This document shows, in pieces, positions 8,686 through 51,163 of a DNA stretch of 64,000 nt (positions are counted from its first letter, which is position 1; every line of letters begins with the position of its first letter). The notes under the pieces were generated by a model, which was not told the origin of the DNA, ran no database searches, and saw only the letters and a program-made list of their open reading frames with translations. The translations under genes were made by a program, and so were the position numbers. The stretch lies in the NCBI GenBank assembly GCA_045837725.1, contig JBEWZL010000175.1:1-64000 (forward strand), given 5' to 3'. Source of the stretch: Vermamoeba vermiformis (taxonomy: Eukaryota).

Positions 8686-11086
8686 TCAGTCAAACAAACT
8701 ATCATTGAGCTGAGTTGCATAGTTTTGAATGGTTCTAGGGCGATGTGACCGACCATATTCTGTTGTTGGAATGTTTTGAAACTGTTTTGCAGTCCAACCT
8801 TTTGTTGGTGTTGGTTGTGTTACAACAGGGGCATCATAGTCATCAGAGTCTTCTTCGCTGCTGGGTTCGTTTCCAACACCTACCACAGAAGGCAGAGTTG
8901 CCTTGGACAAAACTGAAACAGTTGTTGTGGAGTTCCAACTGATTTGTTTTTGTTTGGGTAAAAACATCATTGGACTTCCGACTATTCGAGCTGGTGATTG
9001 GTCCACGGTTGGACCACATCGTGTTCGTTACCCTCATGTGCTTACCAATAATGCTGTTCCGCTTCTGTTAACTTGTCATAGGTTCTTCTTGTGGCAGCTA
9101 TGATCTTCTCGTCAATTTTGTGCGGTTTAATCATGTTAGGCACTCCTGGGGGTATTGCCATTAGAATTGTAATAGGCTCGCCGTCGGCATCTCCCTTCCA
9201 CTGTTCATCTTCAATAATAGGTTAACTTTAATACAAATATTCATATTAGTCTACAAACCTGTGGAGGTGAAGTCTCGCCATTTCATTACAACATGGCCAT
9301 GCTCGTTCAATGTCAGCCAGAACACGTGCGGTTTGGTGTGGCCTGCAAGTTTTGGCAAGTATGGCGACAACCAGGATCTTAAGTCCCATATTGTCTTTAC
9401 ATAGTGAATTGCTGGTGATTCGCTGTAAGTTGAGTCAACGTAGGCTTGCACATCTTGCATAGAAGCTGTTTTCAAGTTGTGTGATTTCAATCCAGTTGCA
9501 AACGGTACGTTTTGCTGGTCAATGTCAGTGTGGGTGTGCCCTTGCAGGAGGCAGATGAAGAAGATATCCTTGGTGAGTTTTTTCAGCAGAATGACTGCAA
9601 AAAACCCAAGAACAAATATATTCTTGTTTTCACGCCAGCAGTTATCAGATTGAAAAACCAGCTTTGCAGGAATTGTATGTCCATCAGTTACTTGGCCAAA
9701 GAGATGCATTGCTAATAGGTTCATGCTATAGTTGCTATCGTGATCAAATTGCTGTGCAATTGAAATGTATAATTGTTTGACACCCAAGTTATGGTTGATG
9801 ACTCCTGAAACTTGCAGGCGCAGACGTGGGAGACGAAGCCAACTCTTTGGAAAGTTACACCATGCAATATGGGGTAACAAAACACCAGAATATCCATCCC
9901 ATATGGTTTGCCACAGAATTGTACAGTCAATAGCTTTTCGAGAGTCATACGTCAATCGCTCAAGCTTTTGAAGTGTGTTATGGTCCTTCAACTTTTGCTT
10001 AATCTGCTGAACCCGAATCACTGTTTGCTTGTTTGCTTGATTCAGCTGACTAATTTACTTGTTAGCATTTCGCAGAAAAGTTTGAAGCACTTACATTTTA
10101 AGTTCTATGCACTCGTCACATTTGCCCAATCTGGTGTTCTTTGGGAATTTGATCCACGTGTATTGTCGCATTGTCTTATAGAACAGTTTTTTGGAAGGAG
10201 GCTCTTGTGGCTCCTGTGCAACCAAGTCATCATATAGAAGTGTCTTGCTTAGAACAATAGGGCAGTGCCACTCGTTAGAGTCTGGTTGCTCATCAAAGAA
10301 GATGTTCACTAGACCAAGGAGAAATCGATGAACCTTGTCTGTTTGAGGAGTTTGATAAGTGCGCAAGCTGTTTCCATGAGGATGAACAACGACATCATTG
10401 ACCTTGAGGGACCGTAGAGCTGTTGTTATTTTCGTGCTGCTAATTCCAAGAGCCTTGGTAAAAGCAGTTCTACAGACCACACGTCCTTCTAACTTGTAAA
10501 CGATCTTGACTGATTCTTGTGTGCATATCGATGATGCCCGCAATACATCTAAAAGCCATTGTGATCTGTGTAAGCATTAATAATTGCCGCAGTGACTACA
10601 CTGTCGTACCTGTCATGCTCGTTTTTAGCTATAAAGGGAAGTCGAATACGCTTTAACTCTGCCTTAGAGAATGAACGCAAACATTGCTGATTACAGCACT
10701 GTTCATGCGACAGATTATCAATTTGTGACCCGCGAATTAATTTGACAGGAGGATGTCGTTGCTTGACGTTTCGATTTGGTGAATTATACTGTCTCTTATA
10801 TACAGGTTGATATACTGATGCTAAATTGTCATTCCAGTCTATTTGAATCGTAAGTAAAGCACTGCATACAGCGCGTAAAACGCTTACCGTCGAAAACAGC
10901 CGCCAAATCAACATCATCCAGTTCATGCATATTGATATCAACAGTAGTATTGTCAGAAAATACATCTTCCAAATTGGTATTCTCCCACCAATTGTCTGAC
11001 AAAGAAGCGAAAATTAACAATTCGAAAAAATTAATTAATTATTAATTTGATATTGGACTTTACACACCTAAGCCAGCACTGCTCAT
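8686..11086 (-). CDS. Sola/DUF7869-type DDD transposase, spliced
   Basis: Motifs CCNQQC, VCRTAFTKALGIS, KCDEC, WDG, FQSDNCWRENKN and GHTHTDIDQ. The three ORF blocks join in frame through canonical short introns. The C-terminal ~150 codons are uncertain. Confidence 0.82.
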
Positions 11087-15536: not shown

Positions 15537-17638
15537 TTATTTCCGTGTGTCGCGGATCCATTCGTAGGCAAGTTCTACTGCACGATCCAAAGTATCAGCG
15601 TGTTTTGCGCGCAAGTTATCGCCATTGCAATCCGGAAGATACGACGCCATTGACGACCATATATTAGACAGCTTCTTGTAGGCATTATCGACGTATATTA
15701 CAGGCCTACCAATGAGAACTGACATGATGCTCGCGTGCAATCTGTCGGTCACGATAACACTTCCACGGCTGAGCAGTTTGTTGCCCATCGCCACTCGGAA
15801 TATCGGCAAAATATCCTTGGGAATGTCCTGTGCCGAAAGATTCGGATACAGCCGCCTGTAGTCGTACAGGGCGCTGTGGTTCTCTTGAATGCTCTTCTGG
15901 GTTGGATAGCCATCAACAGGGAAGTCCCAGATCTCGTACGACAGCTCCTTTTCGTTCGCAAAACTCTTAGCCTTGGTAATGTGCGTGTCATTGATGTTCT
16001 TCTCGGTATCTGAACGGAGCAAAAAGAGGATGTCGACTATTGGCGCATCAGCGGGAGCAATTGGACCAATCATGAAGGCCATGTCGGGAACGAAGACTGA
16101 TTCTGTGTTGGGGAATTTTTCACGTGCGTACTTTAGCGATGGAGTGTCGCGCAACAGGAGAGTTAATTTGCCGTGCTTTTCAAACGCAGCTCTATCTTGC
16201 AAAGCATATTTCTCCTCGCGGTAGCTGATTGATTGAGGCAAGAATATCACTCTGTTGCTCGTCTCATTCAATACTTTCAGTCGGAAGTCCGCATTTTCCC
16301 TCCACCAATCCCCGAAATTTCCACCGCCGTGCAGCAGCACGGAAACGTTCTTCGAATACTTGTAATCGATAATTAGTTACATTTGTTATGAGGAAGTGGT
16401 ACGTACGTTACGCAAAGTTTCCAATTCTCGCTGTTCAGGATCACGAGGAGTGACGACAGGGAGCGATTGCATACTCATGAATAAGTTGTCGCCGTGCCAT
16501 ATGAATGAGTCGCCAAGGTTCCAATGTAGCGGCACATCCATCAAGCTCAAGGCCTCTGAGCCTGCGATCAGCTTGGACAAGCGTTCATTGATCATCTTGC
16601 GTGCCTTGAAAAGACATTGTAATCGCTGAGCGTCCTTTTCTTGAGCAATCGGTATCAAAGACGCGTTGTATGGCACGTTGTAATTCGAGTCTATCGACGA
16701 TACGTTGAGTTGCACAGGACCTAGCGTTGATTTGGAAGCCACGGCTGTGATTCCATGAGCGTAGACAAGAAACGCAGTGCACACTACAATGAGAGCTAGT
16801 GCATTCAAAGTTTGACTGTAGTGGTTCGCGTCGACGTTCAAAGTTTGTGGCGAATCTTCTGGCGATGCCTTGATACGTCGCAAGAGGAAGTACCCAATGA
16901 CCACCAAAGCTAACGCTACCACCGTCAGCAGGTCTACTGGGATATGGACCATTGCGACAACTGCAATAGCTGCGAGACAAATTACTTCGTAGAATTTGTC
17001 AGACATGCGCTTATGAAGAGCATAGCCTCCCCCAACCGCTAACATCGCCCATGATTGTGTAGACCAGTTGAAATTCAACTCGGCAATCGCTAATGGGAGT
17101 GCGAGGACTGACAACAATGCATTGGAATAAAATTGAGTGTATGTCGCTACATTTTCTTCCAGAGTTTGTTCTTTTACATGTGCCAAGTAGTTATAAGCGC
17201 ATCCAAGTAATAAAGTCAAGCCGTCGATACGCTATTGAAGTAACAGTGCTATTAAGGGCATAACATATATTGCACTATTAAGTTTCGATAGTCGCTGTTC
17301 AAATAATCCAAAAAGCACTTGGCTAGCGATCTGGGATAGAGATGAGATCGATTTTCGCATTTATTTATTGTTTTACCTGCGATATGAAAAAGCCATGCAA
17401 AGATGAGTATTGAAGAGCCATGAAAAAAGCAATAGTTGTTGAAATATTGAGAAGCACATCCCTTTTCTTGAGTGCCACGATCTGGACTCCACAATGTTTT
17501 GCCGAGCGTTAGACCAGAAAAAACTGCTGAAATAATAGCGCTTATCCATATTACAACATTTACAACATTATCTTTCGCTAGTTGCGTAGAAAACAATAAA
17601 ATGCACTGGACGTACAATAAATATGACAAGCCAGTCAT
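15537..17638 (-). CDS. Polysaccharide pyruvyltransferase (Pvg1-like) preceded by a multi-TM nucleotide-sugar-transporter-like region
   Basis: NLGD, HGGGNFGD, PQSI, LRD, PDMAF and TDRLHA motifs. The N-terminal hydrophobic region has ALQY and FYSNALLS motifs, one frameshift (~17500) and one in-frame TAG (17232-17234). Confidence 0.85.
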
Positions 17639-17892: not shown

Positions 17893-20800
17893 TTATTTTC
17901 TCTTGTCTCGGTTAATCAATAACATTAACAAATATGAAAAGACTCTGAATGTCACTGCTATAAAGGCTATAAAGATGTGATCCCATTGGATCTGTTCTTG
18001 TGTCAATACGTAATCCAAAGCCTCAACTCCCTTTTCCACTTTGAAAATATCTTTCCACTCCCATAATTCTGAAATTTAAATTAATTAACGTTGAACTCTC
18101 GCGTAACTTATATTCGATAACATACCTCGCAGGTACAACAGCTCATTCGCCCAGCGTAAAAACGACAAATTCGGCATGAACTTCAACACGACGTTCATTT
18201 TGGCGAATTCTTTCAATCCGGGACGCAAACCTATTCACAAATATTAGTGAATGACTTTTTACAATAATACGAATGCATACCAGAGAAGACCATGCAGATC
18301 AAAATAGCTACGACGGATGCGACTTGCGCGATACTCGGGCGAACAATAATCGATACAAAATAGCCAATCGAGTAAGAGCAATAGCACGTCAAGAAAAAGC
18401 CGAGGTACAGGTCAAAGAAGCCCGCGCGAGGAGTGAGCAGCGTGTAGATGATGCCCGTGAAGAAGAGTGGCATGAGCAGCAGTACGGGCATTTGAGCCAA
18501 ATCTTTGCCGAGGAAATAAGCCAAAGATGATGCACCCGAGGCATTCTCACGGTAGAAGATGAGCTTTTCTGGACCGAAGACTTTCAACGCACTAGCTGCG
18601 GATGTGAGCGCGAGCACCAACGCTGCGAGACCGTAGATTTGCGCTATTAAATTAACGATCGTAAGCACAGAAGTGTATTACGACAATACGAACAACTTAC
18701 GATAGGGATCATCGAGGGGCAAATCGCACGTGTCTTTAAGCACATCGATCTTCAAGTCACGACAGGCAATCTCGGGCAAAGGTCCATTGTAGGTCTTGTT
18801 CATGAACACAGCACCCAACAACGAGCCTGACAAGAAGAGCAAAAAGAAATCGATCAAAATAGCTCTGATGTCACGCATTTGTTGGATGAAACTGCGACCG
18901 GCAAATCGAGCGAATTGAGACACAAAGCCAGCCGTGCGACGCTTCAAGTACTTCTCTTTCACTGGCGCGGATTGAGGCAGCAATGGCTTTTGATCATCTT
19001 CACCATCGTCATTCTCAATTATGATACCATTGCCGTGACCATTTTCGACTATAGGAAAAGATTGTTACTACATGCCCAAACAATTAAATCGTTGTTATTC
19101 GTACCGTGACCGTTTTGATACTCGCGCTTGTGAGTCTCCCAAAGTCGAGGCAAATCATCCGTAGTGAATTCAGGGTGGCCTTCACGAGGCTTAAGGCCGG
19201 AAATGACGTCCATGAAGAAGTCAGCAGGGTTGGAGTGAGCAGGGCAGTGGAAGCCGAGTTGTTCGAAGTAGGCCAAGGCAGACTCACTAGGACCAGAGAA
19301 GACGACTTTGCCGCCCTTGCCCATGAGCATGACATCGTGGAACATTTGGAAAATCTCGTAGCGAGGTTGATGGATAACGGCAATGACCGTCATACCCTTT
19401 TCAGTGACACGACGCAACGACTCACAAACTTCTTTGGCAGTACTGGCGTCGAGACCACTCGTAGGCTCGTCCAAGAACAGCACCGTAGGATCAGCGACCA
19501 ATTCCATACCAATGTTGACACGTTTTCTTTGACCGCCAGAAATACCACGTTCGTTCTCATCACCAACAACCGAGTGACGCACATCTAACGATTGAAATTA
19601 GTCTCTAGCCGACAAAGTTAACCTAACAAATTGAGCGTACCGTAAAGACCGAGCAAGTCAATGACACGGTTGACAGTGCGACGCTTTTGCCTGCTTGAGA
19701 ATTCTTTGGGCAAACGCAAGTTGGCATAGAACGACAAAGTTTCTATAAGCACATTAGCTCATGTCGAATACTGAGACGAGTTACGTACCTTTGACAGTCA
19801 AAGTGCGCAACATGATATCATCCTGCGGCACGAAACCAGTGATCTTTCTCAAGCTCTCAATGTTCGATGGAGCACCGTTGATCAGAATTTCACCCGTCAA
19901 ATTGCCGTGGTACATCTTGCCAGCCAATGTCGTGATGAAGGTTGTCTTACCAGAGCCAGAGGGACCCATGACAGCTGTGAGGGATTAGATTAGTCGCAAG
20001 GTACGACAGTACTTAGTTAGAGTTGGTGTTTTACCTGTCAATCGACCGTGCTTAATTTCACCGGTGACACCTTCGAGAATTTTCAACTTGTTCTTGCCAG
20101 ATTCAATTTCCAAACCAAGTTCGTTGAATTTAAAGTCGACATAGAAGGGCTTCATGCCACCCAAGTACTCGATGCGGTTCTTTGAGATAGCAGCGCCATT
20201 GATCGAGTCCAAACCGCCGTTCGAGTCGATGCTTTCAGGGCTCTTAGCAGCCAAGGCAGCCAAACGGATCTGTTCGCGGATCTTGCGGTTTTTGTCTTGC
20301 ACGTGTTGGAAGATCTTTAGGGCTGAGACCAAAACAACGATTGCTAACAACGTGAACACAACAATGCCAAAATCAAGCGAGGGTTCCCCGGTGCCTTCGG
20401 GACAGTAGGTAAAGATCGAACACGCTGCACATGATTAGATGGATCCGCACTGATATATTATGGACAAAACTTACACTTTGGTGACACGCTTCCCACGTTA
20501 CAGAAGTGACCGCTAGGGCAGACTTTCTTTTGGGCAGGGTCGGGACAGTAATTGCCGGCAGGACAAGGCTTGGCTTCGACAGTACCAGGTGGACAGTATT
20601 GAGCTATTTACACGTTAATTAGGCTCTAGGTAGTAATTGATTCAACTTACTATTATAACAGGCTGTAATGTTTTTCGGGCCGTCGCAGTAATGTCCAGCA
20701 GGGCACGGTTGATCGAAAGTAGTACCTTCAGGACAGTATGAGCAAGAGCTAAAGTTCTTGGCGTCACATGAACAAGCCTTCGGGAACTCAACTGAAGGTT

Positions 20801-28554: not shown

Positions 28555-31258
28555 ATGAATAAGGCAATCATATTCGTACTAATGTTGCATGTAATTTCGG
28601 TGCTTGGCGTTCTAAGGATCGTCTCCGTCCAGCCGCTTAACTCGACTTTGACCTCAGCTAAAATTCTACGTGATGGAGAAATATTATGGTCTGAATTGAT
28701 CAACGCCCGGGGCGGAGTTTTGATTAACGGAACTTACCATCCCGTTGAATTGATTTCAATTGACATTGGTGCACCTACAGATGCGCAAATGTCTCAAAAT
28801 GCCATTGATGCGATTAGAGCAGTCGCTAATGGCACTTATGGCGAAGTTCACGCAATGTTGGCTCCCTTTTCAAGTTCTTTGACGGAAGTGCACGCGACTG
28901 AGGCGGAGAAGCACAAAATTCTAAGCTGCGCTGCAGGTATTTCTTGATAAATTCAGATGCTTTTACACAATTAAATTTAAATAATTGCCCTATGGCCCAC
29001 GCTGCAGGGAATCATAATATCGTTACCGATGTTTAAGGACCTTTTTTAGAAAATTTGAAATAGTAAATCGGCCGATACTTTTTTGGAATGTGACTGATTT
29101 GAGACGTAACTAACGACTTGAATTATTCATCAACAGGCGGATCCTCTCCATCGATTTTCGAGTGTGACAATAACTTACGCACTCCTTGCACATCCGTTCA
29201 GGGTCGCAGATTCGAGTACTTAGTCGGTGTCCAGCCGAGCGCAACGAGTATCTTCCCTCCCGCAATCTCACTAGCCAGAGTTAAAGGAGCTAAAACCATC
29301 GCGGTATTTCGCGAGACCGGCGCTAATGAAATCTATTTCCAAGCAGTTCGGACGGGTGCGATCGAAGGCGCTGAGGATAACAAAATGGACGTAGTCCTCG
29401 ACATTACTGTTCCTTATGCCGCCAAGCTTACTGATGAAGCGAGAACCAACATGAAGCAGGTTATCGCTCAACTACAAGAAGCACAGCCAGACGTCGTAGC
29501 TGGAGCTGTTTTTGCCCCTGGATGCCATGCTTTTATTCAAGCTGCTCAAGCAATGAACTACACTGCCCCTGCATTCTTGTTATCCGTTTGCACAAGCGAT
29601 GCTTCAACTTACCGAAACGTACTTGGAGATGCGGGTCGATACGTCACTGGTACGACCTTATGGGACAGACGTTTGTCGGGAAGAGTTTACAAGGAAGACG
29701 GTTCGAGATCATTGCACTTCTTCCCCTCCACAGTAAGTTAATTTTACCGTTCTATTTTAATCACGCGACACGCTAATAATGGATCGTGGGATCTTTGCCA
29801 TTAAATTACAATTTTAACTCTCGTTTTTATTTATAGGATGGCAAAGCAAGTCCTCAACTATTCTTTGACGCCTTTGTGGCAAGATTTGGCTATTCCCCTA
29901 GCTACCACGCTGCTTGTCAATTTGCCTGCGCGTTGGCCATTCAAGGTTCTGCGGAGTTATCTAACTCATTGGAGCCTGAAAATATGCATAATATGATCAA
30001 CAGAATTAGCCAACCTACATTCTATGGTCAGCTTCAGTTTAACTCATTTGGTCAGATCGTGGAAACCGAAGTTGGTGCGACACTGCAATTCAACGGAACT
30101 AATGATGATGTCATTGTCCTTCCTATAGCTGCTTCGGCGAACGAATTGATCTATCCCATGCCTGCATGGAACGAGCGACAGGAGTTGATCGCGTGGTACA
30201 GCACTACAGAAGAGCTTGGCATCGTTATCGTCGCGGGCATTGGCATCCTCGCGTGCTTCGTGATGATGATTTTATTCGCTTCGTGGCGCGACAGACCTCA
30301 AATCATTGCCTCGTCCTTGCTATTCGTGGAGTTGATTATCCTTGGTGCTGCCATGATCTATGCCTCGCTCTTCTTCTGGGTCTTAGAAACAACGACAGCA
30401 ATGTGCAACTTACGCTATTGGCTCAGCGGTGTTGGTTTCGTGCTCATGTTCAGCGCTTTGCTAACAAAGGCGTGGCGTGTGTGGCGCATCTTCCACGAGC
30501 ACAGTCTGAAGATGATCAAGTTGACCAACATGTACTTGCTGCGTATTATGGCCGTGGCGCTCACCATTGAGATGGTCGTGTTGGCTGTGTGGTCCGGCGC
30601 ATTCACTCCTGAAATGGAGACAGTTGTTGTGGACGAGAACAGACCGATACTCAACTACCGCACGTGCTCTACCGAAAACTCACTGCCGTTTGCTATTGTG
30701 CTAATCATCTACAAGGCTTTCTTGATCCTCGCAGGAGTCATCTTGGGCTTCTGGTCCCGCAAGATCCGCAGCGAGTACAACGAGTCCAAGTTCATCTTGA
30801 TTGCCATGTACAACATCACCTTCGCAACACTGATCCTACTCGTGTTATTCGCTATTGGAATCACTGATCGATATATCGACTTTTTGATCAGATCCATCGC
30901 TATTCTTTGGGGTGTTACGGCTACACTGTGCATTTTACTGATCCCAAAGATCTACTACGTTGCCACTGGATCGAACGATCCCACGAGGAAGAGGGCTGGA
31001 TCTACTTGGAGCAGCACTTCTAATCACTCTACTACCGTCCCTGAGACCTACGAAGCAGTGCAAGAGCAGCTGGAATTGCTGTCAAAGCGCGAGCAGCAGT
31101 TGCGCGAGAGATTGGCAGAGCTTAAATCTCAAGACAGAAAAGTGAAGGGAAATGACTCAATGAAGTCTGGTAAAAGCTCCTATAACACTGGCAGGTCCGG
31201 AAACTCGTCAAACAGCCAGATGAACAGCGTGACGAGCACCAAGGATGTTGAAATTTAA
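28555..31258 (+). CDS. Class C (GABA-B-like) GPCR with a periplasmic-binding-protein ectodomain
   Basis: Signal peptide, type I PBP fold motifs, 7TM with KAWRVWRIF, YNESKFI and LLIPK, and a coiled-coil tail. Confidence 0.93.
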
Positions 31259-31433: not shown

Positions 31434-33910
31434 ATGTCATTCAAAAAGCCAAGCAACCCCGAGGGAGACGTCAAAGCCAACTGGACAGACGAATCTGCGT
31501 TCAATGTCGATTTGGCTTTGAAAGAATCGCGGTACGTGGTCAATATGCGCTATTATAATTCATTTTTCGCTTAACCACGACTTTATTGACATTAGTTTAA
31601 CCGAAAATCTTTTTCAGAGATTGGATTGAAGCCGCGACCCGCGAGAAATTCCCAAGCCCCGATTTCGCTACCTCGACAAAGAATGGTGTTTTATTGTGCA
31701 AATTGCTGAATCAGATCAGCGCAAACATTATTCCAAAAATTAATCAACAGAAGAACGCTGTTGCAGAGCGAGAAAATATTTCATTTTTCTTGGCCGGCTG
31801 CAAGAAATTAGGTCTTAGAGAAACTCAGTTGTTCACCACTAATGACTTATACGAAGGTAATTTTTAAATTATTTAAAAATCGTGCACCAAGATTTTTTGT
31901 TGCTCATCTGTAAATTTCGAAAACTAACGCGGCTGCATCACTTAGGACAACGTTTACGTACAGTCGCTATTACACTCTATTGGTTGGGTCGTGCTGCTCG
32001 CGCACGCCCGGATTATAAAGGTAATGTGTCAGATGCGAGGTAGCATTTAATTAATTATTTTGAAATAGGTCCTCAATTGAAATTAACTGCATTTGCTAAA
32101 ATGATGTGCAGTCGCTGCAAAAAACAAATTACAGGCGATAACTACGTCGTGACGCTCGACCAGCAATGGCACACTGAGTGCGCTGCTTGCGACAGTTGTT
32201 CAGCGCCATTAACAGCTGACGGCTACTATCAAGTAAACGACAAAGTTGTTTGTCCGACGTGCTACGACAAGAAGGGCCACGGACATGGCGCTAATGACAA
32301 AAATGGAAACAAACACGGTCACGGACACGATCACGGTCATGGTCATGGTCACGATCACGTAAGTTGCACTCTTACCATCTGCGTATTGTTTGTAACACAT
32401 GCGTCTAGGGTAATGACTGCGAGGCTTGTGGTGAGCCTTTGACTCCGTCAAACAAAGCCAAGAAGACTAAAGACGGTCGCAAGGCCTGCAATGACTGCGT
32501 GTGCAAGGGTTGTGATGGATTGATTGAGGGTACGTGCTTTGTTATGTTTGGTCGTGTAGTTAACTAACTCACGTTCCGTTCAAAGGTCCATTTGCTACTG
32601 TTGGCAAAGATAAGTTCTGCCGTGACTGCTTGTGCGACCATTGCAATCACCCCTTCGAGCCTACTTCCAAGGACTTCAAGGTCGTGCAAGGCAAGAAGTT
32701 GTGCAAACACTGCCGATGTGCTGACTGCGACAAATACCTCGAGAAAGGATACGTTGAGCAGCCCAAGGGCTCGGGCAAAAACAAGTGCTTAGACTGCGCT
32801 AACAAGAACCTTCCCAAGAGTAAGTACTTTAACGAGGCATACACCAATCTAACGCGCATTGTAGATAACAATCCTGCCTTGAACTGCAAAGAGTGCTCGC
32901 GTGGCATTGCTCCTGGTGAGGAGTACTACACTGACAACACGGGCAAACCAATTTGCAACAAGTGCAAGGACCATGTGACCAAGCCTAAGACTCACTCTCA
33001 CTCCTCACACGACAACTGCGCCAAGTGCAAGAAAGCTATTACTGGTCCTGGTGTTGAAGCTCTCGACAAGAAGTGGCACAACAATTGCTTCAATTGCGAG
33101 TACGTACTTATCCTATTCATTGTGAGATACGTATTAACATGTTTTTAGCCGCTGCGGTAAGGATTTCCCTGATGGAAACTACGTTGATTTGAACGATCGT
33201 CCTTATTGCCGTCCTTGCGCCAATCAAGTTGGCAATTCATCACCAAAGGGTGGTCACAATCACGGCAACGGCAACCCGACTGGATACATCGTGAGTTTCA
33301 AAAGCTTTCGCTATTAACCGCAATCCTAACGTTGATATTCGCCGACAGGAGGGTGTTACACCGTGCGTGGCTTGCAATAAGCCTTTGACAGGCCAAGTCG
33401 CTGAAGCGTACGGCAATTACTGGCACTTTCGGCTGCTTCAAGTGTACCAAGTGCAAGAGCTCATTTACTGAAGGCTATTACAAGCACCAGAACATGCCTT
33501 ACTGCCAACCTTGTTATCACTCTGTCGCTGGTACTGATACATGTGCTCGATGCAGCAAGCCGGTTGATGCTAAGGGCGTCAAGTTACGCGACATGCAGTT
33601 CCACGACAACTGCTTCACTTGCGCGCAGTGCAACAAGAACTTGAAGACCGCCAATGATGGTGTCTATTTGGACGGAAGCAAGCCCAAGTGCGGTACTTGC
33701 TATGGCCCTAACACCAAGACAGTTCAAAAGGGTGAAGAGTCATCTAAGACATTGCATTATGGCACGCGTCAAGCTGGCTTTACCGTTGATCCGACTACCG
33801 GTCAGAAAGTCATTCGCTGCCCGAAATGTCAAAAGAGCTGCGGTGCAGATAACAAATTCTGTCCTTCTTGTGGCGTAGCGATTACTGTTAAGAAGTACAT
33901 CAACAACTAA
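31434..33910 (+). CDS. Calponin-homology plus multi-LIM domain cytoskeletal protein with a C-terminal zinc ribbon
   Basis: CH motifs (KNGVLLCKLLN, ENISFFL, LFTTNDLYE), repeated CxxC...WHxxCxxC LIM domains, and a terminal CPKC...CPSC. One apparent frameshift at ~33428. Confidence 0.9.
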
Positions 33911-34058: not shown

Positions 34059-37000
34059 ATGGGAGATAACAACACAAATCCAGTTCCGGATCAATCAGCT
34101 GCCAATCAGCATGACAGTAACACACATGACGAACAAAAACACCACGCCGACGCAAATATACACGACAAACGAAGTACCCACGAGCATGACACCGAATCTG
34201 GAGGTAGGTACTTGTTGGCCAGTCTTAAAATTTGGCAATAAATAATTAAAAAATGTATTTAATTGGTACATCAATTTTTCTGACCCCAAAAATTAAATTT
34301 TTTTGGATGCGATCGTGTTACCGTTTTCATGAAACATTCAATTTGCCGCGCAAGGCATTTTACTTACCAGCACGCATTAAAATAAATAGGGGTTTCTGGA
34401 CTCGATGAAGCAATTAGTGATGGTGAAGACAGCGAGCACGGCGAATCTGCGGTGTCACACGATGAATCTCCAAATAAGCCAAACAATCCGCCTTCAGACA
34501 TGCCAAAATCACTGGCGTCAATATTCTCTAATGGGCCCGCTGATGCTGTTTCTTCAGAGCCAAATCCACCAAGAATCTCACGGTTAGACGCGCAAAAATT
34601 CATTATTGAAGAGGAAAGCGACGCAAAAGACTCGCCAAGATCGAACAACAGTAACGGTACGTATATTAAATATGCCTCGAAATTTACGGTGTTGATTTAA
34701 AATCTCAACTAATTATTTAAAAATCAAGACTACCTCCAAACGGTTGACAGCATTGCCGAATTTGACTTGCGCCACTTGGGTGCTTCTAGAGTAAATATTC
34801 GACCCACAATCAACCAAGATAGCCACAAAGACCTTTCCTCGGATTCAGATCACGACCACGTCTTGCTTGATGATCGCTCAGACTTGCATACTGTTGTGGA
34901 TATTCCAAGTAAGTGTTTGCGGATAAAATTCTCCCACAATGTTTACTTTTTGGTTTTGACCACCCAATTTGACACCGTTGCGAGACATTTTTCTGTTGGA
35001 CCAGTAGCTCAAAAGTAGAGCCCTCGCCTGCCCTTCGGGGTATCATCCTGGTTTTCACAAGAAATTGTTGAATTCTCTGTCAAAAAGTTCTTTAATACGA
35101 GTAGTTGTGGGTGCAAGTCCCACCTGGTCCTCTTCCTTTTTGGCCCACGATCAGATACTTTTTTCCCCTGGTCCATTTCTTTTTTTGCCTTCGCGCAGAG
35201 GCATTTATATTTTCCTTGTGCTAACGATTACCTAAGGTGACGATCAAGAACATGGGGATTTTGGCTACGAACAGACAGTATTTGGGCACTACAACACTGA
35301 TCTGCAGAACCAAGCCGCTGAGGCTGTCAGGCTGGCCAAATTAAAGAAAGAGAAGGCTAAGAGAAAAGTGCGTAGTTTTTTCTATTTGACTTCGTATTAA
35401 TACTTCAAAGGCCGCTGTGCGAACCGACATTACGCTTGAAACCCCGTGGAGGAAGTTTCGTCGTTGGTTGCTTCGGTTCTTCGCACCACTAAGACACCCG
35501 ATAGTGTTTTTAGTCATTTTAGGCGCTATTGCAGCTCTAGTGGGTGTGGCTATGGATACTTTTATCGCATTTATTTTAGATTGTAAGTACGACTAGCGCT
35601 TGCGCGAGAGACACTAACACCTTTTATAGTGCGCACGTTTTTAATTTCGTTAACAACGGTGACCTCACTCCAATATTTTATCTGGGTCATGCACATGTTG
35701 GTTTTCTTAGGCTTTTCAATGTTCATAACACAGGTGATCAGCATTCAAGCTGCCGGTAAGCACGGTAACAATTTGGCTAACAAGTACATTAACACGTGAT
35801 CTACTAGGGTCTGGTATACCCGAAATGAAGTGCATATTGTCGGGCATTCAATTAGGCTCTTATTTAACGCTGAAGACACTTCTAGCAAAGATTCTTGGCC
35901 TATCCACAGCGATTGGCTCGGGTCTATTTGTGGGCAAAGAAGGTCCGTTCGTGCACACATCTAGCATTATAGCCAATCAACTCTCGAAGATTAAATTCTT
36001 TCGAATCCACAACGTACGTCGTAATGATTGTGGATGAGTTACAGGGCTGACTGTTGGTTTAGAATCCAGCACTGAAACAACAAATGTTCGCAGCAGCTGC
36101 CGCCGTTGGTGTTGCATCGAACTTTGGCAGTCCAATTGGAGGTGTATTATTTAGTATCGAAGTAACGTCAACGTACTACCCACTGCGTAACTACTGGTTT
36201 GCATTTGTTGCTGCTACTACGGGCGGAACTTTGTTCAAAGTGATGACAAACAGCTACGCCGGTCAACGTAGGTATTCCATGCTCAACCTTCCACGTGCAC
36301 TAATATTCTTTAGCGCTTCTTCGTGCGTACTTGCCAACAGCATTCCCCGATGCCATTGCAAAGGCGAACTGGTGGGAGTTCTTGGTATTTATTGCTATGG
36401 GACTCGTGGGCGGTGTATTGTCAGCCGTGTTCATTCTTGCAAACTCGAAGTGGATCAAGTTTAGACGCGCTTATGCCAGCAAATACAAGATATTAGAGTA
36501 CGTAGCAAAGTGACCCTTTTTTTCTTCGATCTTAAATTTCTTTGCAGTGCCTATCCTTACGCTGTCCTAGCAGCTTTGTTTACCGCCTTAGTAACCTTCC
36601 CATTACACGATGTTCGCGTAAGTCCCGCCGTCCTCACATTGAAATACCATTCTAAATACAATCGTTTAGCTGGGAAGTTTTGCAGCGTTGAAGGATTTGT
36701 ATCAAGACAGTCCTCTCGTGCCTTATCCGCACAGCAAACTCAACTCTGACTGGAGCGATTTCAGCGTGTACTTGTCACTGCCAATCTTCATGTTCATGCG
36801 CGTAAGTAGTGACGTTTGCTTATATTTGACGGATATTAATCCGTTCTCTGAAGATGATATTGCTCATTATCGCGCTGTCGATCCCTGTTCCTGCGGGAGT
36901 TGTCATTCCTGTACTGGTCATTGGAGCGTCTTTCGGCCGTATCTTCGGCGAGGCTGTCAGCTACTTTGCCGGTGGTATGTCGTTGAGCCCTGGAATCTAC

Positions 37001-41563: not shown

Positions 41564-43031
41564 ATGAGCACCAACAAGGTTTTAATCGCTTTCTTTGCTT
41601 TCTGCACCTTGTCGGTGGCCTCGAGTATCGTTGTAAGTAACCTTCCATTTAAATATTCAACGTACTTATTCTTTTACGGCAGGAGATACAAGCCACTCCC
41701 GCCTCTTCCGTCGTCAATCAGTATCCGTTTTTCTACTACGCTGGTTTGGATGGCGTCGGTGATCTGGCCTTCACCTCTCATCTTGCACAAAACGAAGCTA
41801 GAATTCTGAAGCGTGACATTAATGGCACGTACAGCCCCTTTGCTGGCATGTCACTTCGAAACATGTCCTTTGCAGTAACTACCAACGGCGACTGGTTCGG
41901 ATCAATATTCAAGGACGGCATCGAACTGTTCCGCGTTGACAAGAACGGCCAAGTGCACGACTCTTCCATCATTGATACTACTACAGCCTACTTCATGGCC
42001 AAGTTGCACGAAGATGGTTCGTTGATGGTCGCATTCGCCGACTACATTCTCACCTACGAATACGTCAACAGCCAATGGGTCGTTACTCAAAACTCCAGCT
42101 TTCCTGGCGCTGAATTCTTCGTTTATTCCATTTTTTCTGCCGGAGTTCAAGACAACGCACTCATCCTATTCAACAACAAGCAAAATCCTGACAACGCTAC
42201 GTACAACATCTACATTATCACACGCCAAGCCGACAAGTCGTGGAAGATCATCGAGACTGTGGCTGTCAATGACTCATTCATTTCGCAGGCACGGGCGTTC
42301 TATTGGGATGGCGCCAACACACTCATCTGCACGATACTCATGACAGCTCAAGGACCGCCATTTGGTGCCGTGGTCGTCTTCAACAAGGTCAACGGAGAAT
42401 GGCAGTTGTCACAATGGTTTTCTGCCACCAGTGTTGGCGTCACTGCTATCGGTTATTTTGGTCTTGGTCCGCTCGTTGCACTCGACAACAACAATGTGCT
42501 AGTTCCAGCGCCTGGTGATGGTGTCTCAGAGTGGTGGCATCTTACAGCCGAACACAGGCTCCGTCTACTTGATGCAACGAAATCAACAGAATGAATGGAG
42601 CTTCATCGCAAAGTTCAAATCCAGTAGCGCAGTTTTTAGTGCTGGCTCTGTCCAAGAACGACAAAGACGTGTTGATCCTGGGCTGCGCAGTGAATGATAC
42701 CTTCTTGTGCTCGCTCTACACCGTCCCTGCCTGCGTTGTCGAGCCGATCGACTTCACGTGCCCACAACAGCGAGATTCGTGCAGCACTGACTTGGACAAC
42801 TTGGTTACCGTTAACAATCCTTCGTGCGGTCAGGTGGCTACCAGCTATAGCCACATTACTACCAATAAGAACGGAATCACGGTGGATGTCACTCTTAGCA
42901 GGCCTTTAGTTGCGGATGCAAAATGTAGTGTGACTTTGACATGCAACGAGTTAGCAAGCGTATCTTCTGGCCACGTGTTAGTTAGCTCACTAGTATTTAT
43001 TTCAGCCTTGACGGCTTTTCTTGTTCTTTAA
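41564..43031 (+). CDS. Secreted/GPI-like beta-propeller surface protein, paralog A (two apparent frameshifts)
   Basis: Signal peptide, FG-GAP-like G.V.VF...W...FG segments, a Cys-rich juxtamembrane domain and a hydrophobic tail. Frameshifts at ~42520 and ~42646. Confidence 0.75.
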
Positions 43032-43669: not shown

Positions 43670-45179
43670 ATGAGCATAAAGAAGCTTACAGTTATTTTCC
43701 TTGCCTACGATTTGCACCTTGTCGGTGGCTTCGACTATCGTCGTAAGTGTTGGTTAACCATCTGCATTCAATACATTGCGTCACAAATTAGCAAAAAAAA
43801 TTAACTAATGTATGGAGTAGGAGATGCAAGCTACGCAATCATCTAGCATCACAAATGCAGTCGCATCATTTTACTTCGCGAATTTAGCCGGAGTCAATGA
43901 TATTGCGTTCACGACCGATAAAACTTCCAACGAAGCGAGAATTCTGAAGCGAGATTCGAGTGGAAATTATAATTTATTCGCAACCAAACAACTGCAAAAT
44001 ACGTCACTGGTAGCTACGACTAATGGCGAGTGGTTTGGAGCCATCTACTCCGAAGGTATCGAACTGTTTCGCGTTGATCAGAACGGCCAAGTGCACGACT
44101 ACTCAATCCTAGAGACAAACACCGAAAAATTTTCAGCAAAGTTACAAGATGATGGCTCGCTGATGGTTGCATTCACCGACTACATCCTCACGTACGAGTT
44201 TGTCAACAGCCAATGGGTCGTTACTCAAAACTCCAGCTTCCCTGGCGCTAGTTTCTTTCTCTCGTCGTTTGTCTCTGCGGCTATTCCCAACAACGCATTC
44301 ATCACTCTGAGCACCAAACAGAACTCCGACAATGTGACATACAACATCTACATTGTGGCGCGTCAAGCTGACAAGTCGTGGAAGATCGTCGAATCAATTG
44401 CTGTAAATCAGACTTTGCTCACGACGGGCCAGTCGTACTTTTGGGATGGCAAGGACACGTTCATTTGCACTGCTGCTAGCTTTGGTGGCGGTATTCCTTA
44501 CGGCTCAGTGTTTGTTTTCAACAAGAACAATGGACAATGGGAAATTTCACAATATTTTTCTGCCGCTGAGGTCGGTGTCTCTGGTTCTGGATTTTTTGGC
44601 GTCGGTCCTCTAGTGGCATTGGACGACAATCACGTGCTCGTTCCTGCTCCTGCAGACAAGTTGACCTCGGAAGATTTTCCACCGGGCACTGGCTCCGTCC
44701 ATTTGATGCAACGCAATCAACAGAACGAATGGACCTTCGTTGCAAAATTCAACTCGAACATGAGTATGTTCGGTACTGGCTTGGCCAAGAACGATCACGA
44801 CGCTTTGGTCTTCGGGTGCACTCCAGACTTTTCAAACGCACGGTTGAGTTTCAATTGTTCACTTTTCACCGTTCCAACTTGCATCGTCGAACCGATCGAC
44901 TTCACGTGCAATCAGAAGCAAGACTCGTGCAGCACCAACTTCGACAACTTGGTTGTCGTCAACAATCCTTCGTGCGGTCAAGTCTCAACGAGTATTGATC
45001 GTGTTTCTGGTGACAAGAGCGGCATTGTTGTGGACATTACTTTGAGCAGACCGCTTGTTGCTGACGCCAAGTGCAGCGTGACTCTCACTTGCCCTGAACT
45101 GACAAGCGTATCTTCTGGCCACCTATTGATCAGCTCTATGGCTTTAATCGCAGGATTAATTGCTGCTATTACTTTGTAA
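43670..45179 (+). CDS. Secreted/GPI-like beta-propeller surface protein, paralog B
   Basis: 451-aa open exon colinear with paralog A. The signal-peptide exon has an apparent 1-nt frameshift. Confidence 0.8.
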
Positions 45180-47447: not shown

Positions 47448-49248
47448 ATGGTAATATAATTTGATATTACTATATTAAGCACTATCTAATGTTATGTAAC
47501 GATTGTAGAGCACTTACAATTGGATTACGATATTTCCCCAAACTTACAATACGTCACAATACGTCCATGACATTCCTAGTCCATTCGAACATCAATTTAA
47601 TGTGAATTATGAGGATTGGAGACCAATCAAGCTTCTTCGGATTGACATCCAAGACAGATTTTATTTGAAAGAATATTCTCTGATTTATTTGGAGACAGGC
47701 GAGATTATTAAAGGTAATAATATTTTTTATTGTATTTTTTACAATTTTTAACGTTTAAAGATACGCTTCAGGAATTGACATTGGCGATAAATTTTTTTTT
47801 CGACTGATCTTTCCAGCAAAAAAAGGAGCTTACAAACTCGTAACCAAAGGAGGCAAATACTGCTGTAAGTACCTAAATATGATCGAGTTTTTTTCTTATT
47901 TCGTTCGGCAGATTCCGTGCTTATGCTCGAAAGTACTTTGGAGTTGACAGACGAACCTATTTGCAAAGCGCGTAGTCCTTTCAATATCCTCGTGAGCTGT
48001 CCTATTAAAAACGAGCCATTATATAAGCAAATCACGTACAGAAAAGTCGGCGCAACGGAATGGGAGTAGAGTAGCATTAACTGCAAAAAAAATTTCTTCT
48101 AGAATTAACGTTCTTTTGGACAGAAATATTGGCCTTACAACTGATTGGTAATAGTATACATCTTCATTGGTATTATTTAATACTAAATGACGTCCAGCCA
48201 AATTCCGGTCGATGTGGATCCGACCTGGGCGTACGAAGTCAAAATGAAGCTAGTTGTTCCTGATTTATTCGAGACTGAATATACACCTATTACAACTACG
48301 ACAGTACATCAAAATTGGGCCAATCAAAGACGGCCTAATATTGATTTCTTCGACACAACTCTTCAGTTTCAAATTTGTATGCAATGCTGGTTATCGAAGT
48401 AAGTTACAAAAATATTATTTTAAATACTAATGGTCCTATATATGATTAGTGTTTCGATGACGCTGCGATACAAGCGACATGGTGAGGAAAATTGGAGTCA
48501 AATTGAAAAAGCACCGTATTTATCCAATGTGCAATATCAATTAGAAGAGCTTGGACGTATTACGTGGAGTTTAGAAGACAGATTATATGATCAATTAATA
48601 GAAGACGATATGACTATCGATTGGCAGCTGGTATTCAAAAACATTGAGACCAATCAGATAGTAGAATCGGATATTCGGACTGAAGTGCTGCATAAACGAA
48701 ACAAAGTTGCAACAGGTGAAAGTTTAACAACTTTAACGCGATTTGGTCGTCATAAAAACGCATCGTCGTTGATATATCTGTGCCCTGATGGACAATTTTG
48801 GTTCACGCAAGATATTCGACAGTACGCCGCAAATAGAAGTGTCATTGGCGTCGATCAGATCGGTTTTAACGGACGTTATATATTGAAGCGAAAACAAACG
48901 AGCAATATCATCACACTTCTGCCGAAATTTCATATCAAACTTTTCGAGCCCTACGAATATGACAACTTGTCAACGATGCTGTTGCCAGAATTGGTCAAAC
49001 TAATTATAGGCTACGTTGTTACGCCGCCATATCAGTTCTACACAAACACGTTAAAGCATTTGGTAGAAGTAAATCGAGTCTGCAAGCACTGGTTCAATCT
49101 GTTCGCAAAAGTACAGCTGCAAGTGAAAGGAGAGTTGTCGGATAATTACGGACCGAACAGGCGCACTTGGGATGATGACGCGCCATTGAATTTTGATGAC
49201 TGGCTGTCAGATTTTAAGTATAGTTCGACTGGAGATTATTTTTCTTAA
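47448..49248 (+). CDS. Hypothetical multi-exon protein with a C-terminal F-box-like motif, paralog 1
   Basis: Shares PIKLLRIDI.D.FYL..SLIYL and VDP...YE.K.K motifs with the next gene. LLPELVKLIIGYV...NRVCKHW lies near the C-terminus. Confidence 0.65.
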
Positions 49249-49390: not shown

Positions 49391-51163
49391 ATGCTCGCTA
49401 GTCAACCGAAAGTCCTGATGGCAAGTGGAATTAACTGGATCATAGTTATTCCAGAATCCTTGTCTACGAGCAGTAGGGACAAAGAAAGAAAGCAATTTGA
49501 ACATTATTTCTCGGTGGATTATGACGATGATAAGCCAATTAAGCTGCTCCGGATCGACATCTGGGACAACTTTTACTTGGACGAATTTTCTCTCATTTAT
49601 TTGGATACGAACGAGAATTTAAATAGTAAGCTTGCTCTTACATATAAATAATATAATTATCGTATCAGATTATTAATATTTTTAGTGGGCATGGTGCTGC
49701 GAACCAATTTTCGGAGCACTTTCGTCTTTCCACCACGAAAAGGACAATACAAAATAGTAACCAAAGGAGGAAGTTACAAATGTAAGTCTATAATTGGTGT
49801 CTAATCAGCATTAACTTATTTTTAGATTGTGTCAGACTGCTGGAAAACGACGGCCCGTTGCAAATCCGACCAGATCACAAGGCTCTAAACAGTTATAAAG
49901 TGTATTTATCCATACCTATGGAGGAGGAACCATTTAAAAAGCAATTTGCATACCGAGTTGTCGGCTCAGATAAATGGGAAATACTGCCTGACCTCTGGTA
50001 ATTGCTAAATCCACTCACAAACTCGTTTTTTAATTAAATTTCTAGTACTAGCAGTGAATATTCTACTAGGGGGTAATATCATATTCAGTGCTAGAACTTT
50101 CGAGTATTACTAATTCGTTACAGACACGTTGTTTTGCAAGTCGATCCGCAACAAAGCTACGAAACTAAGGCGAAAGTATTGGTCGAGGGTTTATTCGATA
50201 CTGAATATAGCGAGCCATCTATTCTAGATGATCATAAGACGTGGATCGATCAGTTTCGACCGAACGATCCTTTGTTTTTGCTCCACCACGGCTTACGATT
50301 CGAAATGAATTTCTATTGTTGGCCAACTGAGTAAGATATTCATTGAATATCAATATCGTTATATCTAACTTAAGTATATTAGTAAGGATCTTATATTGCG
50401 AGTTAAGTTAGGCAACGAAGAAGATTGGATCTCATTCGAAAAATTATACAAAAAAAGTCGAAGAAAAATAGAATATAGTGAACCTATAGTATTCGATTTA
50501 AGCAGCATTTACGATCAACTACCAGACGACGATGAAACATTTTTTGAATGGAAGTTAGTTTTCCGAGATCAAGCGACCAAACAAGAGCATGAAGGCGAGG
50601 TTAATTTTGATTCATTTACAAAACGAGAGAAATTTCAAGGCAGCGAAAGAGTTAAAAAGACTTATGTTTTCCAAGAAGATTGCGTAGATGCGAGCACAAA
50701 AATCCATTTGTGTAGAAACGGTGTATTTAGATTTGAGCATCCTCGTATTCGTAAATTAGTGCTGAAAGGAAGATATCGATTGAAAGCATTGGACGGTAGT
50801 GATACAGAAGTAGACATTATTTTCGTTCCAGATCGACCTCGAAGAGTACGTCATTCGTACGAATTGTCTGATAACATTATGATGAATACTGATACCGATA
50901 ATAATCATCCGATTTGGTCGCTATTTGACGTCGCAACGATGATTTTTAAAACAGTGTTTTCACTGAACGAAGAGAACGAGGATAACTACCCATTAGAATC
51001 GTTGATATCGATCAACTTAATATGCAAGCAATGGTACAAGATATTTTGGCAGTCTTTTGAACTCCACGGCAGATGGCACGGCAACCGGATTAAAATATTT
51101 GGTTGGAAACAAGGTGACGAAAAAACCGGAGAATTTAACCAACTAAGAGATTTAAATAAATAA
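49391..51163 (+). CDS. Hypothetical multi-exon protein with a C-terminal F-box-like motif, paralog 2
   Basis: Colinear with paralog 1, with LFDVATMIFK...NLICKQWY. Confidence 0.65.

Follow-up and report, generated by a model that had tools for sequence, protein, structure and literature searches.

A tRNA-like element with an ambiguous anticodon in an intron of a CLC channel gene of Vermamoeba vermiformis

A stretch of 64,000 nucleotides (nt) from Vermamoeba vermiformis (contig JBEWZL010000175.1; 'the window' below means this whole stretch) carries a tRNA-like element at 34998-35131 on the plus strand, inside an intron of a CLC channel gene. An insert splits its anticodon arm, which raises the question of what, if anything, the element decodes. 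A reading made from the letters of the DNA alone (the sequence-only reading) had proposed a splice-dependent suppressor tRNA for the ochre codon UAA. We find that the element is truly tRNA-derived and intronic. On balance, and with moderate confidence, we interpret it as a decaying, probably non-decoding tRNA-derived gene copy, which would make it a pseudogene or part of a small family of tRNA-derived repeats.

The cloverleaf and its host intron

We searched the 64-kilobase (kb) window with Rfam and obtained a single match, to the tRNA family RF00005 (34998-35131, plus strand; 43.3 bits, E 7.2e-06, against a gathering score of 29 bits). The alignment covered model positions 1-71 of 71, and 66 nt of the anticodon loop were taken as a gap. 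The tRNA likeness of this interval is beyond chance. The acceptor, D and T stems pair perfectly and a T5 run begins 5 nt past the discriminator base, as the sequence-only reading had described. Its D-loop and T-loop sequences, its discriminator T and its insert of about 62 nt splitting the anticodon arm are likewise present in the sequence (Table 1).

The acceptor, D and T arms are all present in the minimum-energy fold of the 134 nt (z -2.1, -38 kcal/mol; 5 of 200 shuffles were as stable). In this fold U33 to C37 lie inside a local hairpin with a UUCG loop. This hairpin includes the GCC at 35030-35032, in agreement with the sequence-only reading. The anticodon bases pair with the 5' part of the insert and not with the part that adjoins the 3' cut. 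Folded alone, the insert has no unusual structure (z -0.22; 78 of 200 shuffles as stable). A second tRNA was not detected within the insert, as Rfam gave no other tRNA match at E up to 1 in 34900-35250; the only other row in that interval was TCL6_1, at 16.4 bits versus a cut-off of 60.

Several bases of the cloverleaf depart from those expected of a tRNA. G18 and G19 in the D loop and T54, T55 and C56 in the T loop are near-universal bases of the tRNA elbow, and here the D loop has A18 G19 and the T loop has G55. Canonical splicing would leave C at position 37 instead of a purine and would place C31 opposite A39, so that the anticodon stem would not be complete. ARAGORN in its default mode found no tRNA in the window. 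With introns allowed, the program called one gene, tRNA-Stop(tta), with a 62-nt intron at 33/34 and exons of 53% G+C. Given A18, G55, the C31-A39 mismatch, C37 and the blank default result, the element is not likely to be a working elongator tRNA.

RNA contigs establish the intronic position that had been proposed for the element. Spliced contigs of two RNA runs, X4 (depth 43.4) and X8 (depth 8.5), join 34908 to 35237 and skip 34909-35236, and X4 also skips 35368-35410, the next intron, of 43 nt. Of the open reading frame (ORF) pieces downstream of the host intron, all three that were tested match the family Voltage_CLC, with E values from 3.9e-15 to 3.6e-19, and the two exons that flank the intron matched no Pfam family. 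A further intron of about 70 nt appears upstream in the CLC gene, as judged by eye only from a loose contig end and the sequence text. The intron motifs GTAAGT and CTAAC seem, again by eye, 'fungus-like'. A LIM-domain gene (32564-33910, plus strand; LIM E 4e-08 and 1.1e-14) lies directly upstream of the CLC gene.

The locus has been rearranged locally, because 35167-35206 repeats 35123-35162, that is, the 3' strand of the tRNA, its trailer and the T run. The level of identity between the two (29 of 40 positions) was reached in 0 of 200 dinucleotide shuffles of the 381-nt region (best-value mean 22.4, standard deviation 1.1, maximum 26). A T7 run is found at 35180-35186 in this downstream second copy. 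The length of the host intron (328 nt versus 43 nt for its neighbour), together with the duplicated tRNA 3' end and trailer, fits a history of insertion or rearrangement. Also in the second copy, the segment CTGGTCCA has 8-nt complementarity to 34997-35004 and is followed by the T7 run. In a transcript of greater length, CTGGTCCA and 34997-35004 could therefore pair as an alternative acceptor stem.

Anticodon readings and splice signals

The start of the anticodon arm (35023) is set by the D arm and its end (35101) by the T arm, and an arm of 17 nt therefore requires the removal of exactly 62 nt. We enumerated 11 such removals. All 11 give a 7-nt loop with U33, and 8 of the 11 give a purine at position 37. 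The anticodon is UUA for cuts after 35025-35029, GUA for a cut after 35030 and GCA for a cut after 35031; a cut after 35032 yields GCC with A37, and cuts after 35033-35035 yield GCC with C37. The sequence-only reading had named two anticodons, UUA from the removal of 35027-35088 and GCC with a C31-A39 mismatch. Both can be read from the sequence, but the number does not hold, as four anticodons (UUA, GUA, GCA and GCC) are available.

Removal of 35027-35088 is the sole removal that gives five stem pairs, with a loop that carries TTA, U33 and A37, and the other removals with a normal stem keep C31 opposite A39. Nonetheless, since all 11 removals give a 7-nt loop with U33, and four anticodons result, the tidy UUA loop carries little information. 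It is one of four readings, set by the bases that precede ACGAG. The ARAGORN run with relaxed intron settings that had been suggested as a check did return tRNA-Stop(tta), but the choice reflects only how the program scores loops.

We next consider the signals for cutting. The four-subunit endonuclease of animals, fungi and amoebozoa, as described in PMC10485636, reads the tRNA body, from which the splice sites are measured, and removes 37/38 introns only; the proximal anticodon-intron pair is critical for excision. A canonical cut gives the anticodon GCC, because positions 34-36 lie in the 5' exon. At the canonical site, the proximal pair, which joins position 32 to the base three places before the 3' cut, would be C opposite U. 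As the pair needed for the 3' cut is missing, the element may not be spliced at all.

We also scored all cut pairs in 35018-35049 x 35055-35103 for the bulge-helix-bulge geometry, in which a helix of 4 base pairs (bp) is flanked on each side by a 3-nt bulge that contains a cut. The canonical pair 35033/35095 allows 1 of 4 central pairs, and the three UUA-giving cut pairs allow 0, 2 and 1 of 4. None of these four proposed cut pairs has a bulge-helix-bulge helix. The geometries in which all 4 central pairs form remove 13-75 nt, never 62, and do not restore the 17-nt arm.

The use of stop codons in the window bears on the question of ochre suppression. We found 21 ORFs of at least 160 codons and counted 20 of them, leaving out one that is antisense to the ABC-transporter ORF; some ends may lie in introns. 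The stops are TAA in 13, TAG in 4 and TGA in 3, and the ORF with a complete 7tm_3 domain and that with LIM domains both end in TAA. This agrees with the earlier view that wholesale reassignment of TAA is not indicated. An efficient ochre suppressor would be costly in a genome that uses TAA as its main stop.

A related copy and the competing explanations

We examined about 13 million raw RNA reads of run X21, whose species label is that of the best-matching DNA source, aligned against an 801-nt stretch that includes the host exons. Seven reads aligned, all within 35084-35135 and with five distinct starts; six have 90-95% identity and one has less than 90%. All seven carry T35091A, G35110A and G35113T. 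Six of the seven extend upstream into a consensus that is related to the insert but departs from it, over some 40 nt, by several substitutions and small gaps. The X21 reads show no splice joints. They reveal a second, diverged sequence, which has the insert in common with the window copy and is transcribed without losing it. The first mate is on the minus strand in 6 of the 7 reads, which suggests sense (plus) transcription, assuming the usual stranded protocol. The relative may be a paralogue, or it may be this very locus in a strain that has diverged. No X21 read covers the 801-nt stretch at 95% identity or more, and run X23 gave 0 aligned reads, but the host exons are also uncovered, and this is therefore weak evidence that the window copy is silent.

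Across the 36 exon bases that could be compared, the two copies have only two differences, both structurally critical, with one defect in each copy. At 35113 (position 55) the relative has the usual T where the window copy has G. At 35110 (position 52) the A of the relative faces C62, which breaks the 52-62 pair of the T stem. This pattern, which comes from one sequence pair only, looks like drift and not like constraint. The sequence-only reading had seen in A18 and G55 a reciprocal change that suggested selection. Because G55 is private to the window copy, the proposed co-change is weakened: the relative combines T55 with a broken T-stem pair (its position 18 is outside the coverage). The third difference, at 35091, falls on the would-be U33 of the UUA loop, which is A in the relative.

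Searches for further copies returned little. Searched against the window itself, the element and the complete host intron gave matches of at most 16 nt. A metagenome scan with an 18-mer from the 3' end gave 20 loci, none homologous and none with the insert. By eye, two of them (L005 and L017) are ordinary tRNAs that encode their CCA and have a UUU anticodon loop, and their likeness to the acceptor and T arm was forced by the search pattern; the remaining 18 bear no relation to the element. In prokaryote genomes, a scan with a 20-nt word from the insert gave 11 bacterial loci with likeness limited to the word, and ARAGORN with introns allowed found a tRNA in 0 of these 11. Two viral scans gave 0 matches. 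The features of a repeat family thus amount to one diverged copy in RNA, with 0 further copies in the window and 0 homologues in the metagenome, prokaryote and viral scans. Degenerate copies had been named earlier as evidence that would count against a suppressor, and the single diverged copy bears this out only weakly.

We propose the following history for a decaying copy. A tRNA-derived copy would have been carried into the CLC intron, or would have arisen within it, in the same orientation as the CLC gene. Its ancestor was probably a tRNA gene that carried the insert as an intron and had a normal T loop. The window copy may then have gained G55; its aberrant D loop, its C37 and the mismatch between C31 and A39 would have appeared at some point. 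The 3' end and trailer were presumably duplicated locally. If the copy is transcribed, whether from an internal promoter that has been weakened or as a piece of the spliced-out host intron, and is cut by the usual endonuclease, the anticodon would be GCC. No UUA suppressor is predicted to be made.

Several observations weigh against decay. The acceptor, D and T stems keep every one of their 16 pairs, the Rfam score exceeds the gathering cut-off, and the T run is at a normal distance downstream. The X21 relative is present in RNA with its insert, and so at least one family member is expressed. As for a repeat family in particular, a single further copy was seen, and the remaining 63.8 kb of the window lack one. 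The silence of the window copy is weakly supported, given that X21 has no reads on the host exons either, and RNA sequencing of this kind rarely captures mature tRNA. In principle, the endonuclease might cut elsewhere, but the lack of a bulge-helix-bulge at the needed sites holds regardless.

Comparison with known systems places the element between classes. Like tRNA pseudogenes and low-confidence 'suppressor' predictions, it is found by ARAGORN only under relaxed settings and has changes at universal bases, whereas its stems are unusually clean for a pseudogene and a relative that shares its insert is present in RNA. It resembles tRNA-derived short interspersed nuclear elements (SINEs) in its tRNA-like head with internal promoter regions, its intronic location and the existence of at least one diverged copy. 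Unlike these, it has the full acceptor 3' strand and a complete cloverleaf, and there is no unrelated body with a tail and no clear target-site duplication. As a sense tRNA-like unit in a spliced GT..AG intron, it is similar to tRNA genes within introns of protein genes. These are common in several eukaryotes, and the nesting itself is unremarkable.

With those nuclear tRNA genes of fungi and other eukaryotes that have an intron at 37/38, the element also shares a cloverleaf, a single insert of plausible length (62 nt) in the anticodon arm, pairing between anticodon and insert, and a T run. It differs from them in lacking the proximal pair or a bulged 3' site, and in C37, A18 and G55. By the rules of tRNA identity, its anticodon and its acceptor end would not agree on a single amino acid. 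The UUA, GUA and GCA readings need an intron outside 37/38, as in the bulge-helix-bulge introns of archaea and of red algae (the latter from PMC10485636), but no 4-bp helix with 3-nt bulges occurs at any 62-nt removal site examined. In Mucorales, tRNA introns are confined to Tyr-GUA and Ile-UAU genes, and low-confidence intron-containing tRNAscan-SE calls are reported in early-diverging fungi related to Mucorales, according to PMC10946435. The element would fit this class of low-confidence calls if the organism were near Mucorales, a placement that is hypothetical.

Alternatively, selection may maintain the element as a tRNA-like non-coding RNA, or the element may be the gene from which a family of tRNA-derived repeats stems. 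Its body would then be preserved for processing by RNase P and RNase Z or for transcription by RNA polymerase III, and its insert would never be removed. Such an RNA would act outside decoding, and might yield small RNAs or compact the long host intron; its acceptor stem would join the ends of 134 nt within the 328-nt intron. The intact stems beside changed bases in the elbow and decoding loop are consistent with this role, as are the insert common to the second copy and the RNA reads that still contain it. We regard this alternative as unlikely. Conservation is weak, because the second copy has a T-stem mismatch and its insert diverges within about 40 nt, and the insert of the window copy lacks a significant fold. 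The window holds no further copy, and neither the tRNA-unrelated body and A-rich tail of a SINE nor a clear target-site duplication is visible.

It is more doubtful that the element is a working intron-containing nuclear tRNA, transcribed by RNA polymerase III from its internal promoter and relieved of 35034-35095 at 37/38. Its GCC anticodon would read GGY codons, or the tRNA would be charged according to its U73 end. The Rfam score, the perfect acceptor, D and T stems, and the position of the T5 run favour a functional gene. The anticodon pairs with insert bases, as is often the case in tRNA introns, and the relative is seen in RNA as insert-containing fragments similar to a pre-tRNA. However, this pairing involves the 5' part of the insert and not the bases beside the 3' cut, C37, A18, G55 and the C31-A39 mismatch are unfavourable, the relative has a broken T-stem pair, and the window copy has 0 reads. 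G1-C72, G2-C71, A3-U70 and U73 probably do not fit glycine identity, which also weighs against a GCC tRNA. The segment 35023-35039 may resemble the anticodon arm of tRNA-Gly(GCC), and the body may resemble tRNA-Cys. The canonical cut described in PMC10485636 fixes GCC, but the C opposite U at the proximal pair stands against excision, for which that pair is critical in the same text.

A further, speculative possibility, to which we give little credence, is a lineage-specific family of tRNA-shaped RNA polymerase III transcripts. Its members would be non-decoding and would have a perfect cloverleaf body and a shared insert of about 62-64 nt that is not removed, with A18 and G55 tolerated or selected. 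The short X21 fragments give a hint that insert-containing small RNAs of such a family are present in cells. Within such a family, a rare non-canonical splice might conceivably produce a UUA, GUA or GCA anticodon.

The ochre suppressor is by far the least probable explanation. Removal of 35027-35088 (or of 35028/29/30 to 35089/90/91) would give UUA and a low level of UAA reading. The five pairs with U33 and A37 and the tRNA-Stop(tta) call are in its favour, and U73 with G1-G2 presumably recalls glutamine-type tRNAs. The first two mean less when the 11 removals are considered together, as all have U33 and 8 have a purine at 37, and the program's choice follows from loop scoring. The needed cut, at 30/31 to 33/34, has no bulge-helix-bulge (0-2 of 4 central pairs) and no other signal that we could identify, and the bases of the elbow and promoter region are degenerate. 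Fungal, animal and amoebozoan endonucleases are reported in PMC10485636 to remove 37/38 introns only, and this rule leads to GCC. A UUA loop that requires a non-canonical cut is not conserved in the relative, where all seven reads have A at 35091, and most of the long ORFs, those with the 7tm_3 and LIM domains included, end in TAA. We conclude that the suppressor proposed by the sequence-only reading is not supported. If it were true, it would be notable as a conditional read-through tRNA in an organism with TAA as its main stop.

Three other candidates were dropped by eye. Against a C/D-box guide RNA, the insert shows no box motifs. Against a transposon in the anticodon loop, terminal inverted repeats are absent and only a CT dinucleotide is repeated at the junction. 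Against a mitochondrial fragment, the exons have 53% G+C and no organellar sequence flanks the element.

Read as a decaying tRNA-derived copy, the locus illustrates cleanly how a tRNA finder that permits an intron anywhere can turn an ambiguous insert into a 'suppressor' call. It also presents a tRNA-derived copy nested in an RNA polymerase II intron, and it hints at a small family whose members have an unspliced insert in common.

Features of the locus and other genes in the window

The coordinates of the element, its parts and its host intron are collected in Table 1.

Table 1. Features of the tRNA-like locus, in window coordinates
Feature	Position	Strand	Basis or remark
Host spliceosomal intron of the CLC channel gene, 328 nt, GT..AG	34909..35236	+	RNA contig joints; element in sense orientation
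tRNA-like gene (positions 1-73 plus insert)	34998..35131	+	Rfam RF00005; ARAGORN with introns allowed; minimum-energy fold
Acceptor stem, 5' strand	34998..35004	+	Pairs 7/7 with 35124-35130
D arm	35007..35021	+	4-bp stem (35007-35010 / 35018-35021, 4/4 pairs); 7-nt loop AAAAGTA, one G versus the usual two
Anticodon stem 5' strand (35023-35027) and loop positions 32-37	35023..35033	+	GCC at 35030-35032; C at position 37
Insert, 62 nt, if cut at the canonical 37/38 site	35034..35095	+	No significant structure of its own, proximal pair or bulge-helix-bulge
Position 38, anticodon stem 3' strand ACGAG (35097-35101) and 5-nt variable loop	35096..35106	+	C31 versus A39 is a mismatch
T arm	35107..35123	+	5-bp stem (35107-35111 / 35119-35123, 5/5 pairs); loop TGCAAGT, G at position 55 (35113)
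Acceptor stem, 3' strand, and discriminator T (35131)	35124..35131	+	Sequence; ARAGORN
T5 run, possible RNA polymerase III terminator	35137..35141	+	Run seen in the sequence; function inferred
Diverged second copy of 35123-35162 (tRNA 3' strand, trailer, T run)	35167..35206	+	Period 44 nt; 29/40 identical

The window also encodes several genes unrelated to the tRNA-like element. We identified a DUF7869 ORF (9251-10054, minus strand; E 2.2e-45) with an unmatched neighbour on the same strand (10091-10576, minus strand). We take DUF7869 to be associated with eukaryotic transposon proteins. Two pairs of ORFs look by eye like tandem paralogues: one at 41653-42594 and 43821-45179 (both plus strand), which shares the motifs NEARILKRD and GIELFRVD, and a second at 48424-49248 and 50369-51163 (both plus strand). 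None of these four ORFs matched a Pfam family.

A class C G-protein-coupled receptor (29103-31258, plus strand; 7tm_3 E 2.1e-49) is encoded downstream of an ORF that resembles a ligand domain of the periplasmic-binding-protein type. Homologues of this receptor are present at 58-87% identity on JGI contigs of up to about 590 kb, so relatives have been sequenced at genome scale. An Atlas search returned only animal GABA-B-like clusters. The minus strand further encodes a polysaccharide pyruvyl transferase-like ORF (15537-16376, E 4.1e-19) and a fragment of an ABC-2/ABCG-type transporter (19049-19597, E 3.5e-20).

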